DNA from: a phage
Strand: one strand, 5' to 3'
Assembly: GCA_026329315.1 (NCBI GenBank)
Contig: GCA_026329315.1_4342.1
DNA length: 43,897 nucleotides
Made by a program: the position numbers and the translations under genes. Positions within the stretch are counted from its first letter, which is position 1. Every line of letters begins with the position of its first letter. Below the pieces are notes generated by a model, which was not told the DNA's origin, made no database searches, and saw only the letters and a program-made list of their open reading frames with translations. Positions 11,704 through 35,887 of this stretch are shown one piece after another.

Positions 11704-12834
11704 ATGGCCCAGAAGAAAATAACCGACGAGCAATTACAGGAAGAATTGAACGCCGGGATGAAGAATATCGATATCGCCCGTAAATACGGAATCTCAGACC
11801 GCGTTATCCGAATCCGTAAAGCGAAGCTGGCTAAGAAAGGCGTAGGCCACGGGCGCGACGTTAGTCACCTTGTACCAGACGGTTACAAGATTAAAGGAAC
11901 GTCGTCCCTGGTGGACGAGTTCGGCAACACTAAGTTGCAATGGGTTAAGACCGACGCTGATGCCGAACGTCAGGTTGAATTGATGAAAGCCGTAATAGAG
12001 GGCATGAAGTCAGAGATTACGCCCGTTGCGCCTGTTAAACCGGCACGAGCCAAACGTGACGATAAACTACTCAATCTTTACACGGTATCTGATTTCCATC
12101 TCGGTATGTTAGCCTGGGCTGACGAGAGCGGCGACGACTGGGATATGAAAATCGCGGAGGACTTATTCTCTCGTTGGTTTGATGCTGCGTTTCAGAAAGC
12201 ACCGGATGCAGGTACGGGGGTTATTAATCTTCTTGGCGACTTAGCTCACTTCGATAGTCTTGACGCCGTTACACCGGCGAGTGGTCATGTCCTTGACGCC
12301 GACACGCGTTACCAGAAACTTGTCCGCTACATGATTCGCATGGTCCGCCGTGTTGTTGATATGGCTCTGGTTAAGCATAAAACTGTTCGCTTGCTTATAG
12401 TTCAGGGGAACCACGACGAATCCGGGATGATTTGGCTGGCGGAGATGTTCAGTACGCTGTACGACAATGAGCCGCGCGTGTTCGTCGATACGTCGCCGGA
12501 TGTTTACAAGATGGTGCAACACGGCAAAACGACGCTGTTCTTCCATCACGGGCATAAAGCACGATTCGACGCTATCGAACCGGTTATGATTGCCAAGTTC
12601 CGTAAAGCGTTCGGCGAGAGTGTTTACAGCTACGCCCACGTAGGCCATCTGCACCACCAGAAGATTGTAGAAAGCCGTAACATGATTGTTGAGCAACACC
12701 GCACCTTAGCGGCTAAAGACGCCTACGCCTCTCGCGGCGGATGGATGTCGGGCTGCAGTGCAAATGTAATTACTTATAGCGCCGAATATGGCGAGGTCGC
12801 ACGTTTAACTATTTCACCGGAGATGCTGGGATGA
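11704..12834 (+). CDS. HTH-fused calcineurin-like metallophosphoesterase
   Basis: N-terminal HTH (NIDIARKYGISDRVIRIRKAKL); phosphoesterase motifs SDFHLG, GDLAHFD, QGNHDESG, HHGH, GHLHH. Confidence 0.65.
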   Translation: MAQKKITDEQLQEELNAGMKNIDIARKYGISDRVIRIRKAKLAKKGVGHGRDVSHLVPDGYKIKGTSSLVDEFGNTKLQWVKTDADAERQVELMKAVIEGMKSEITPVAPVKPARAKRDDKLLNLYTVSDFHLGMLAWADESGDDWDMKIAEDLFSRWFDAAFQKAPDAGTGVINLLGDLAHFDSLDAVTPASGHVLDADTRYQKLVRYMIRMVRRVVDMALVKHKTVRLLIVQGNHDESGMIWLAEMFSTLYDNEPRVFVDTSPDVYKMVQHGKTTLFFHHGHKARFDAIEPVMIAKFRKAFGESVYSYAHVGHLHHQKIVESRNMIVEQHRTLAAKDAYASRGGWMSGCSANVITYSAEYGEVARLTISPEMLG

Positions 12835-13319
12835 AAGATATTGTAATTTTCGATTTAGACGGGACATTGGCCGACGGTACCCATCGCTTACACCTGTTAC
12901 CAAAAGATAACTACGGAGAAACGTGGGCGTGGAAGCCATTTAACATGGCCTGCAAAGATGACGCTCCGATATACGACAATATCCATTTGTGTAGCGTACT
13001 GTGGCATTCCGGACTTACTATAATTATCCTTACCGGGCGAAGTGATGACGCTGAGGAGGAGACTCGCGAATGGTTACGAGAGAATAACGTTAGGTTTGAC
13101 ACGCTAATCATGCGCAGCAAACACGACAACAGAAAAGACATCGTAATTAAAGAAGAGGTGTTGCGTGCTTTCGGACTGGAAAGAATCTTGTGTGCGTTCG
13201 ACGACTCTCCAGCGGTAATAAAGCATTTCCGTGACCTCGGCATAACCGCACACGCAGTTACCGAATACGACTGTAACGGGAACTCTACACACTTAAAACC
13301 ACACGGGAGCGATAAATAA
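12831..13319 (+). CDS. HAD-superfamily phosphatase (polynucleotide 3'-phosphatase / nucleotidase-like)
   Basis: DLDGTL motif at N-terminus, ILTGR and FDDS motifs; ATGA overlap with upstream gene. Confidence 0.6.
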   Translation: MKDIVIFDLDGTLADGTHRLHLLPKDNYGETWAWKPFNMACKDDAPIYDNIHLCSVLWHSGLTIIILTGRSDDAEEETREWLRENNVRFDTLIMRSKHDNRKDIVIKEEVLRAFGLERILCAFDDSPAVIKHFRDLGITAHAVTEYDCNGNSTHLKPHGSDK

Positions 13320-13874
13320 TGGCTAAGGTAATTATTCTTAATGGCCCTGCGGGTTGCGGGAAAGACACGCTTGCTATGGCGCTGGTAGAAATGGGCTTTG
13401 CGAAAGGAACTACCAGTTTCAAGAATCCAATGTTCAATATTGCTTTGGCAGCGTTAGGCCAGGATGCTTACCACGAATTTCTCGACGGCTACGACGACCG
13501 GGCGCGGAAAGAAAAACCCGAGGGTTTTTCTTAATGGGTTGTCCCGCCGCCGGTTAATGATTGCCATTTCTGAGCAATTCATTAAACCGGTATTCGGCGA
13601 TGATTATTTCGGTAAGTATCTTGCTGAAAACTTGCCTGACGGCGACGAAGTTTTTGTAGTGTCCGATGGTGGATTCGCCAGTGAAGTTGCCCCTATCGTC
13701 GCCGCGGGGCATGACGTGCGAATCGTCCGCCTCCATCGTGACGGCTATACGTTCATCTGCGATAGCCGTGGCTATCTGTACGATGTTAGTGGTGTAAAAG
13801 ATTACGACACCTACATCATACCGGGTGACGTTAAATCGAACGTTATAGACATTGCTTTAAAATTAGGTTTGTAA
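13319..13874 (+). CDS. deoxynucleoside monophosphate kinase (T4 gp1-like), interrupted by a +1 frame change at T5 run 13525-13529
   Basis: P-loop GPAGCGKDT in frame A (13319-13534); RRLM and kinase C-terminal region in frame B (to 13874). Confidence 0.55.
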
Positions 13875-13880
13875 GAAAAA

Positions 13881-13910
13881 GGCCCCGAAAGGGGCCTTAG
13901 TTTTATGCGT
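13881..13910. terminator. bidirectional rho-independent terminator (GGCCCC-GAAA-GGGGCC)
   Basis: Same stem as the 1785 and 21132 terminators; A-run upstream, TTAGTTTTAT downstream; between convergent genes. Confidence 0.65.
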
Positions 13911-15069
13911 AGGTGATACGTTGAATTACGATAGACGACTGGTACTGATTGCCGGTAGCCTGGCCTTCAATGGACTGAGTGATTGACTCAGGCCCACCAA
14001 TCTCAGGTGTAACCGCCGTAAGCTCTGCACGTTTCAAACTGAAAGACATAGCCCCGTTTACCCCTGCCAGAATAGAGTTAATCTCTACCTGCTGCTCGTT
14101 GATAAACTTCTGAATCATCGCCATGTCGTACAGCTTGCCAGAGATAGAGAATGTGTTAGCTGCGCGTCCACGTTCGACGAACGCCACGCTACTGTTACCG
14201 AGTTCGAACTGCGCGGAAGCTCCGTTGTCGTTGGTGATGGTGAGAGTATCGCAACGCAACGGCGTGGAGCCATCGAACACCGACACATCTACCGACGAGA
14301 ACGGCTCATCGGTGAACGTAACCTGAGAGAAATCAGAGCCAGACGGCGGCGCGGTAAGAATCTCCTGACTCCGGCCGATGAACGGGAAGCTGCCGGTGAC
14401 CATGGCGTTAACCGCCTGCTCTACGGTAAAGCCAGAGATTTCCACACCTTTGGTCAGCATGTACGCGTCCGGGTTACCACACTGGCCCTTGAACCACGTC
14501 AGGATGGAGAACGTCTTACACGCGTTACCGGTTTCCAGCTTGTCGCCAGTTTTTGCGTCAGTGGTTACTGTCTCTGCTGTCAGCGTGTGCTGAATACCTG
14601 CGCCCGTAACTACCAGAGCGGAAACCGCGGTCACGATAAACGGTTTTGCGTTGTCGCCGGTTAAGTCGGTGAACGCAATAAGGTCGCCAACTTCTACACC
14701 GTCAGTAATGAAGCTACCGGCAGCGCGGGTGAATGTTTTACCTGCTGGAGCGACCGTAATTTCGGCACCCGTAATCTCTACCCCATCCTGCCACGTAGAC
14801 GTCATCGCGCCAGCAAGGAAATCATCCTGACTACGGGAGCTAAGTTCGATGGCATACTCCCCGCTAACCTGCTTGTTACCGGTTCGGATGGATGTAGTTT
14901 CACGGCTGCCGTCCAGTTCGTTGGAAGTCAGTGCATCGCGGGTTACAGCGGGAACGCCGCCCGTGTTACGCAACGGCGACCATACCGGGTTAGTCGGTGT
15001 TACGCCAGGGGTAGTTTCCGCCACATAGAATTGCGCGGTATTCGCGCCCTTAAAAGGAGTTGTAGCCAT
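13903..15069 (-). CDS. major tail protein
   Basis: Large structural ORF preceding chaperone/tape-measure block; ATG at 15069 with AAGAGG RBS. Confidence 0.5.
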   Translation of the reverse strand: MATTPFKGANTAQFYVAETTPGVTPTNPVWSPLRNTGGVPAVTRDALTSNELDGSRETTSIRTGNKQVSGEYAIELSSRSQDDFLAGAMTSTWQDGVEITGAEITVAPAGKTFTRAAGSFITDGVEVGDLIAFTDLTGDNAKPFIVTAVSALVVTGAGIQHTLTAETVTTDAKTGDKLETGNACKTFSILTWFKGQCGNPDAYMLTKGVEISGFTVEQAVNAMVTGSFPFIGRSQEILTAPPSGSDFSQVTFTDEPFSSVDVSVFDGSTPLRCDTLTITNDNGASAQFELGNSSVAFVERGRAANTFSISGKLYDMAMIQKFINEQQVEINSILAGVNGAMSFSLKRAELTAVTPEIGGPESITQSIEGQATGNQYQSSIVIQRITYA

Positions 15070-15071
15070 AT

Positions 15072-15488
15072 TCACAGCCTCTTGGTGAATGCAATAAAGT
15101 TAATTGACAATGGTCGTTTGGCCCATCCGTTTTCTACAATCAGCGGCCCCAGGCTAACCGATTGAACCTCGGCGCAGATGTCGTTACGCGAAAATGCCTT
15201 ACCTGATTTAAACGCCGTGTTAAGTAAGTCTGCCATTTTATTGATTGGCGCGCTACCTTTCACCGATGCGTAGTTAATGTCTATCTGATAGACACCGGCG
15301 CGTTGTTCCGTGAAGAATAAGTCAGCCTGCTCGGTATCCGCCAGCAACATGTAACTTGCCAGATACGGCGTATCTGTTGACGTCGGCGCGTCGATGTTTT
15401 CAAGCGCTACCTTGATGCCGTTGGTGGTTCCGAAGGCTACCAGCGGCACATCAAACGCTTTTGTTAAGTCCTCAAAGTAGCCCATCAT
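15072..15488 (-). CDS. tail completion / neck protein (hypothetical structural)
   Basis: Tightly packed, overlapping stop/start in head-tail joining region. Confidence 0.35.
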   Translation of the reverse strand: MMGYFEDLTKAFDVPLVAFGTTNGIKVALENIDAPTSTDTPYLASYMLLADTEQADLFFTEQRAGVYQIDINYASVKGSAPINKMADLLNTAFKSGKAFSRNDICAEVQSVSLGPLIVENGWAKRPLSINFIAFTKRL

Positions 15489-27963: not shown

Positions 27964-27985
27964 TAGTCATCACAGAAAATAGATA

Positions 27986-28014
27986 AAAAAATCCCGGCTG
28001 GGTCAGGGCCGGGA
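27986..28014 (-). terminator. rho-independent terminator (CCCGGC ... GCCGGG + T7)
   Basis: GC stem followed by seven T on - strand. Confidence 0.55.
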
Positions 28015-29337: not shown

Positions 29338-29704
29338 GATGAATCCTCCAGGTGCGTATTAAGTATGCAGTAACTGGAGGATAGCACGGTTATGAATTAT
29401 CTTAATAACGGTTTATTTATGACGCCAGATGTATTGTCGTCTCTGCGGTTTAGTCGGAATATCATCGTATCCGAGCGATTTCCAGTAATTAAATAACCGA
29501 TTAGCGATTGCCGCGCGTTCCTGTGTTTTAAACTCACCCAGATTCACGGCCTTCCGTTCTGGAATCCACAGGCGCGGATAGCTTTACGCCGTTCTTGTAT
29601 CTCTGGGTACAGCACGTTACGGCGACGCTTGTGTATACGTGTCTTCGCTCTCGGTGACAGCGGCGCAAGGCCGCTTCGTTTCAGGATGTCAGTTGCTAAC
29701 GACA

Positions 29705-29893
29705 TCACTCCACCCCCTCCACATGTGTAACCGACCCACAGTTCGCGCACTCGACATAATCAGGGTACTGGTCTTTGTATTTCTGTAACTCAGCTTCAAG
29801 TTTCGCGTAATCTTCGTAAAGCACTAACACGCCCTCAACATCAGGAGTAAACCCGAATATCTGGTCGTAGGTATATCTCTGCACCATAATCAC
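29705..29893 (-). CDS. hypothetical small protein
   Basis: ORF in leftward small-gene run. Confidence 0.3.
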   Translation of the reverse strand: MIMVQRYTYDQIFGFTPDVEGVLVLYEDYAKLEAELQKYKDQYPDYVECANCGSVTHVEGVE

Positions 29894-35858: not shown

Positions 35859-35887
35859 ATAGTACCATATTAATTATTTTAGAAAAA
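35859..35887 (-). promoter_or_regulatory. candidate promoter of the XRE regulator, -10 TACTAT inside imperfect palindrome ATAGTACCATAT
   Basis: -10 present but -35 weak (TTTTTC). Confidence 0.35.

Follow-up and report, generated by a model that had tools for sequence, protein, structure and literature searches.

A single-base insertion in a T run splits a deoxynucleoside monophosphate kinase-like gene in one Kagunavirus assembly

The stretch of DNA analysed here (the window, 43,897 nt) is the genome of an Escherichia coli siphophage of the genus Kagunavirus (K1G-like, Guernseyvirinae), and its nearest GenBank records are 91-96% identical to it. The window corresponds to Logan contig ERR10438666_43, whose 43928 nt consist of the 43897 nt of the window and a 31-nt k-mer overlap, such that the contig closes on itself at k=31. 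The region considered below comprises a phosphatase gene and a kinase gene on the plus strand, a tail-tube gene that converges on them, and the terminator that separates the two transcriptional directions, with the following features:

12831..13319, plus strand: gene for a 162-aa HAD-type polynucleotide-kinase phosphatase domain protein (ORF; PF25109 HAD_PNKP, E=3.3e-20)
13319..13534, plus strand: zero-frame half of the split kinase gene (5' side), 71 codons long and containing the P-loop GPAGCGKDT (ORF and alignment)
13525..13529, plus strand: T5 homopolymer carrying a one-base insertion (alignment to relatives)
13530..13874, plus strand: +1-frame remainder of the kinase gene (3' side), running from Leu71 to the stop codon at 13872-13874 (ORF and alignment)
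13879..13898, both strands: bidirectional intrinsic-terminator hairpin (a terminator-like site on each strand)
13903-15075, minus strand: convergent tail-tube gene, which shares the terminator at 13879..13898 with the kinase gene

The TAA stop codon of the phosphatase gene overlaps the ATG of the kinase gene in the sequence TAATG at 13317-13321. The 71-aa ORF that starts at ATG 13319 begins with residues MAKVIILNGPAGCGKDT, ends in EGFS, and terminates at TAA 13532-13534, and the +1 frame, offset by one base to the right, meets no stop codon from 13464 until 13872-13874. The T5 run at 13525-13529 lies inside GGTTTTTCTTAA (13523-13534), where the codons of the zero frame are GAG GGT TTT TCT TAA and those of the +1 frame are GTT TTT CTT AAT GGG. 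Removal of one T from the run produces a 555-nt ORF of 184 aa that matches, at 555/555 positions, the intact gene of phage 22664BS2 and of four assemblies: L014 (NCBI GCA_029113465.1), L017 (ENA), L018 (Logan SRR11454309), and L007 (IMG/VR). Because of this identity once the T is removed, and because the match to phrog_139 described below spans the junction, the 13319-13534 ORF and the +1-frame ORF are, on the evidence of the alignments, one kinase gene in two halves rather than a chance juxtaposition. The initial annotation had described a kinase gene split by a +1 frame change at the T5 run, and both the ORF layout and the alignment place the break exactly there. The junction falls at residue 70/71 of the intact kinase, and the last residue of the 5' fragment (a Ser encoded by TCT) and the stop codon behind it are out-of-frame products of the insertion. 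The full-length 184-aa protein would contain the junction peptide EKPEGFLNGLSR and the truncated product would end in EKPEGFS; the junction cassette that includes the putative slip site is GAGGGTTTTTCTTAATGG.

The two frames overlap over 13464-13534, and other join sites within the overlap, such as the A5 run at 13512-13516, were considered and ruled out, because the alignment gap sits in the T run, flanked by the conserved K64 and E65 in the zero frame and by R77 in the +1 frame. Re-initiation was rejected at two start codons: ATG 13534-13536, which overlaps the stop codon, lies in the third frame (ORF 13354-13557) and is followed by a stop after 7 codons, and ATG 13557, the start chosen by the Logan gene caller, has no recognisable SD.

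With one T removed, the window gene equals the intact allele, whose protein matches phrog_139 (deoxynucleoside monophosphate kinase) over residues 1-165 with E=3e-44, and the Walker A motif or P-loop, GPAGCGKDT, corresponds to residues 9-17 of the 13319-13534 ORF. Pfam scans of both halves and of the intact protein returned no model at cut-off, the only matches being sub-threshold ones to generic P-loop models, and a PDB sequence search with the intact kinase returned nothing significant, so that a fold search was needed to reach T4 gp1. The AF2 model of a 98%-identical homologue (P0001) is a single-domain fold with a pLDDT of 93.4, and among PDB entries it matches the T4 dNMP kinase 1DEK best (Foldseek E=3.9e-5, TMq 0.68), with adenylate-kinase-like proteins next. 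T4 gp1 is thus the best solved-structure match; both proteins have the P-loop NMP-kinase fold, and both belong in a context of nucleotide or DNA metabolism, the window kinase adjoining a PNKP-like phosphatase. The differences are equally plain, as the two proteins are only 19% identical with no significant sequence match, T4 gp1 has 241 aa versus 184 aa, and the window copy is broken. Database names for the protein also differ, and include ATP-binding protein, RFC large subunit, and phosphomevalonate kinase. The name dNMP kinase used in the initial annotation is reasonable as a label for the family and the fold, to which phrog_139 and the match of the model to 1DEK both point, with dNMP as a putative substrate.

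In an alignment of 35 homologues, with identities as low as 33%, the positions that vary little or not at all include, 5' of the junction, the P-loop, in which G12, G14, K15, and D16 are invariant, and K35, R61, K64, and E65. Those 3' of the junction include R77, S84, E85, K89, P90, G93, D116-G-G-F119, E122, R137-L-x-R140, D148, and R150. Among the latter, D116, G117, G118, F119, E122, D148, and R150 are strictly invariant, and R137, L138, and R140 of the RLHR motif are nearly so. Most of the conserved core is thus missing from the 71-aa product. The arrangement that characterizes the family, a single frame joining the P-loop to the C-terminal motifs, is lacking in the window copy, which is broken at 13525-13534. 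A second profile, phrog_31701 (89 positions, function unassigned), matches only residues 1-78 of the intact kinase (E=4.8e-27), and probably gathers N-terminal fragments from kinase copies that are likewise frameshifted or cut short, phage mfs being an example.

GenBank relatives within Kagunavirus carry the kinase as a 555-nt CDS encoding 184 aa. Across the junction (13490-13565), all 53 GenBank Kagunavirus records that have the gene are one base shorter than the window, with 75 (or 74) bases aligned to 76 (or 75) window bases, and the single gap falls in the T run. Close relatives read GGG-TTTT-CTT (T4) at this point, encoding Phe70-Leu71, and K1G-type relatives read GGG-TTTCC-TT, with no T run at all. 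A 25-mer containing T5 had no exact match in IMG/VR, JGI metagenome contigs, or GTDB genomes, and the corresponding T4 25-mer, which served as the positive control, is present in 3 IMG/VR contigs. Likewise, the exact 71-aa product is recorded only in the window's own contig, ERR10438666_43.

Contiguity of the kinase extends well beyond the genus. A search of 5.8 billion protein clusters gave 95 matches, 94 of which are related to the kinase, and all 94 are contiguous, with lengths of 156-257 aa (mostly 184 aa) and query coverage of at least 81%; the remaining match, cluster P0095, is unrelated, with 17% coverage, and was set aside. By tblastn against 50,697 phage records the gene was found in 1,425, and at least 80% of the protein lies in one place in 1,414 of these; the kinase is in one piece in 59 of 60 phage records sampled across the tblastn ranking. 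A phosphatase protein identical to the one encoded upstream in the window occurs in 10 other contigs, where it adjoins an intact 184-aa kinase in nine and a kinase gene with a start-codon change, not a split frame, in the tenth. The initial annotation had proposed comparison with homologous phages as a check, and this comparison finds the split in 0/53 GenBank relatives and 0/94 clusters, indicating that it is private to one assembly and conserved nowhere else among the sequences examined.

Comparison of genomes also indicates that relatives form a mosaic at the kinase slot, which the PNKP-phosphatase gene and the shared bidirectional terminator delimit. Two unrelated small ORFs (76 and 40 aa) replace the kinase in K-01 (L008:33100-33467) and in phiEc3 (L010:11692-12059), and the terminator hairpin at 13879..13898 is kept even in relatives with a different cassette in place of the kinase (K-01). 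In a human gut metagenome contig (ENA ERZ916635, L021:1989-1991), the kinase start codon is changed from ATG to AGG in a gene that is otherwise near-identical; the next ATG would give a 165-aa product without the P-loop, and the allele is an apparent loss of function. A frameshifted kinase is found in Klebsiella phage mfs (Webervirus; OP611406.1, L037:498-510) at the homologous Phe-Leu codons, where the intact relative UGKSKpnP3 (L038) reads GAC TTT TTA GGC (T5) and mfs has T4, a shift in the direction opposite to that of the window. The two alignments suggest that the conserved Phe-Leu T-run marks an indel hotspot in two phage clades and not a recoding site. In the genomes compared, the cassettes of K-01 and phiEc3, the AGG codon of the gut contig, and the frameshift of phage mfs together show the kinase to be dispensable.

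The explanation favoured for the window is that a dispensable accessory gene recently lost its function through a private insertion, with the extra T probably present in the phage DNA rather than in the assembly alone. A single T would have been added to the T4 run, yielding T5, by polymerase slippage at the short homopolymer that encodes the conserved Phe-Leu pair, in an otherwise intact gene for a 184-aa T4-gp1-like kinase. The insertion is judged to be very recent because the window gene has no further differences from the intact allele. Translation would then stop at TAA 13532-13534 after 71 residues, and the product, which would keep the P-loop, is predicted to be inactive as a kinase because the DGGF, RLHR, and GDSR motifs are lost beyond the junction. 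The phage would stay viable without the kinase, given that the gene is dispensable in the genus, and any full-length protein would be made only through background +1 slippage at UUU_U. Such a gene is like other frameshifted accessory genes in phage assemblies, in that a private 1-nt change lies in a short homopolymer, close relatives are intact, and the gene is dispensable, and it differs from them in nothing substantive. The split kinase is, in other words, an ordinary disrupted (or mis-assembled) accessory gene, an already-known phenomenon, and the two ORFs are best annotated as one disrupted (or mis-assembled) dNMP-kinase-like gene, neither as two genes nor as a recoding event. Should the mutation be real, it would further support the dispensability of the kinase for Kagunavirus growth, alongside the replacements in K-01 and phiEc3 and the loss of the start codon in the gut contig.

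A serious, though less probable, explanation is that the kinase gene is intact, with T4, in the phage itself, and that the fifth T is a sequencing or assembly artefact, originating from a homopolymer miscall or from the path taken through the de Bruijn graph. Logan applies an automated pipeline to all public runs whose reads reach 31 bp, regardless of sequencing platform: a de Bruijn graph is assembled at k=31 (Cuttlefish unitigs, Minia3 contigs), k-mers seen once are dropped, variants give way to a 'best guess' major path, and the contigs are not polished (PMC12424806). The window is one such unpolished contig. Within the collection, the exact tail-tube protein of the window phage occurs only in run ERR10438666, and there is thus no sibling data set. 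A literature search for ERR10438666 found no paper, and a search for a near-identical genome suited to a genome-wide error audit found none, the best GenBank relatives being those at 91-96%.

The accuracy of the contig was assessed by a BLAST-based indel scan of the window against four complete relatives, to which an ORF-level scan was added because the BLAST scan is blind to indels that break alignments. Five window-specific 1-nt indels were found by BLAST, all at homopolymers:

13525-13529: T4 to T5, kinase gene
about 29551: A3 or G3 to 2, conserved 97-aa gene
27985-27991: A8 to A7, intergenic
35883-35887: A4 to A5, intergenic
36660: TT to T, intergenic, just upstream of ATG 36662

The ORF-level scan found only two real genes split in the window, the kinase gene and the 97-aa gene. 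At the latter, a phrog_9632 gene on the minus strand, the window reads AACGG-AAGGCC versus AACGGAAAGGCC or AACGGGAAGGCC in relatives, and the deletion leaves two ORFs, 29544-29750 and 29413-29547, in place of the gene; IMG/VR has 14 contigs with the intact allele and none with the deleted one. A change of the kind that a scan for 1-2-nt indels would miss may be present in K-01 (PQ435593.1, L008:37900-39026), where the major head protein is recorded as two overlapping CDSs over 1127 nt versus a single 1050-nt CDS in relatives, which suggests that the record holds an insertion or frameshift.

Finding two private frameshifts in the coding sequence of an unpolished assembly gives reason to suspect error, and two such frameshifts at homopolymers are also what a homopolymer-error-prone platform would be expected to produce. 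The second of them (about 29551) breaks a conserved gene, the longest homopolymer of the window is A7 where all four relatives have A8, and the kinase gene is otherwise identical to intact alleles, all consistent with an artefact. The same can be said of the four GenBank relatives, which have no 1-2-nt coding frameshifts, their genome-specific non-3n indels (4, 0, 4, and 0) being all intergenic when checked against the annotation tables. However, an error-prone platform should strike long runs first and mostly in coding sequence, whereas 82 of 87 aligned homopolymers of at least 5 bases, and 11 of 12 aligned runs of at least 6 bases, agree in length with every aligned relative, and only two of the five private 1-nt indels are coding even though the genome is mostly coding. 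The location of the other three in the small intergenic fraction fits selected real differences and not random miscalls. Furthermore, wrong k-mers would need to outnumber correct ones in order to be retained in the contig, and assembly into a single self-closing 43.9-kb contig at k=31 points to accurate reads at depth. Inactivation of the kinase gene by natural means, as documented in K-01, L021, and phage mfs, likewise argues against the need to invoke an error.

If the T5 allele is real, it might still permit some kinase synthesis through adventitious low-level +1 slippage at UUU_U, with expression lowered and not abolished, an outcome that is very unlikely. Re-pairing of tRNA-Phe is possible from the UUU at 13526-13528 to the UUU at 13527-13529; the match would be perfect, a ribosome that shifted would make the native protein, and an SD-like GAGGG (13520-13524) lies just 5' of the slip site. 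A minority of species use UUU_U as the RF2 slip site, and low-level frameshifting that compensates for an indel is an established category (PMC5009743). However, the A site holds no slow codon, the zero-frame codon there being UCU (Ser), which is not rare at 11.0 per 1000 codons in the long ORFs of the genome. In-frame TTT_T occurs 19 times in the same set of ORFs, and the motif is thus not avoided; nor is there any sign of selection maintaining the T5 allele, which is private to one run.

A precedent for slippage of this kind is the thymidine kinase of herpes simplex, in which a 'savior' indel and low-level compensatory frameshifting have been described (PMC5009743). There, as in the window, a viral nucleotide-kinase gene is broken by a 1-nt homopolymer indel, and rare slippage could restore the product. 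The herpes simplex run is G7/G8, the selective agent is an antiviral drug, and frameshifting was measured (PMC5009743), whereas the run in the window is T5. A stronger form of the same idea is quite improbable: that the T5 is real and is tolerated or favoured because a trickle of slippage makes it a leaky down-tuning of the kinase, with the Phe-Leu T-run acting as a recurrent on/off hotspot across clades. If true, the hotspot would span Kagunavirus (T4 to T5) and the Webervirus phage mfs (T5 to T4).

The initial annotation had offered three readings of the split, namely sequencing error, pseudogene, and programmed +1 frameshift; the first two still stand, and with the third rejected its interpretation is only partly supported. 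A programmed shift of the RF2 (prfB) type, required for or regulating kinase synthesis, is extremely improbable, being effectively refuted by the comparative data. The window does share with prfB (CUU_UGA_C, with an upstream SD) a short zero-frame ORF whose functional part lies in the +1 frame, a P-site codon able to re-pair at +1, and an SD-like purine stretch upstream of the slip site. A zero-frame stop also follows, as the initial annotation had remarked, and lies 3 nt beyond the slippery UUU_U, but the UCU Ser codon intervenes between UUU and UAA, such that the stop comes one codon later and is not in the A site when tRNA-Phe is on UUU. The optimal SD spacing for an RF2-type shift is 3 nt, and RF2-type +1 shifts are independent of 3' structure. 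In the window, GAGGG is the sole upstream SD-like element, lies 1 nt before the UUU codon, and is ancestral Glu-Gly coding sequence in all intact relatives. At RF2 itself, CUU_U is the conserved slip site, with UUU_U in the minority noted above, and the codon that slips immediately precedes the stop (PMC5009743), unlike the arrangement in the window. That arrangement is found in no other copy examined and has no autoregulatory logic: the split is absent from the 53 GenBank Kagunavirus records and the 94 clusters, the gene is contiguous over at least 80% of the protein in 1414 of the 1425 phage records, five independent samples carry the otherwise identical intact allele, and the other frameshifted homologue, that of phage mfs, needs the opposite direction of shift.

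Downstream of the break, a hairpin is predicted at 13537-13605 (-27.8 kcal/mol, z=-3.4), and 2 of 200 shuffled sequences fold as well. An imperfect inverted repeat is found in this part of the kinase coding region, with its core at about 13550-13590: CCGGTTAATGATTGC ... GCAATTCATTAAACCGG. Such a structure would at first sight favour programmed frameshifting, but the sequence of 13537-13605 is present unchanged in intact relatives, and the hairpin was ruled out as a frameshift stimulator on this ground and on that of the independence from 3' structure noted above. Since both it and GAGGG are unchanged in relatives with an intact gene, neither appears to be an adaptation to frameshifting. An Rfam scan of 13300-13950 at E<=1 gave no recoding element, the matches being weak chance ones on the terminator only. 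Transcriptional slippage sites are typically A or T homopolymers of 7-9 or more, and the run at 13525-13529, with 5 T only, is too short for efficient transcriptional slippage. When all of the non-programmed readings are combined, it is highly probable that nothing programmed takes place at the T5 site.

The split kinase shows that a single-base frameshift confined to one raw Logan contig can look like a recoding site, and that comparison with close relatives settles such cases quickly. Among the relatives compared here, one GenBank record, Escherichia phage vB_EcoM_SHAK7858 (OR594183.1), has the taxonomy Autographiviridae/Kayfunavirus and a name in which the 'M' denotes a myovirus; it nevertheless matches the window at 94% identity across most of 25 kb and shares its gene order with Kagunavirus siphophages, and is probably misclassified in GenBank.
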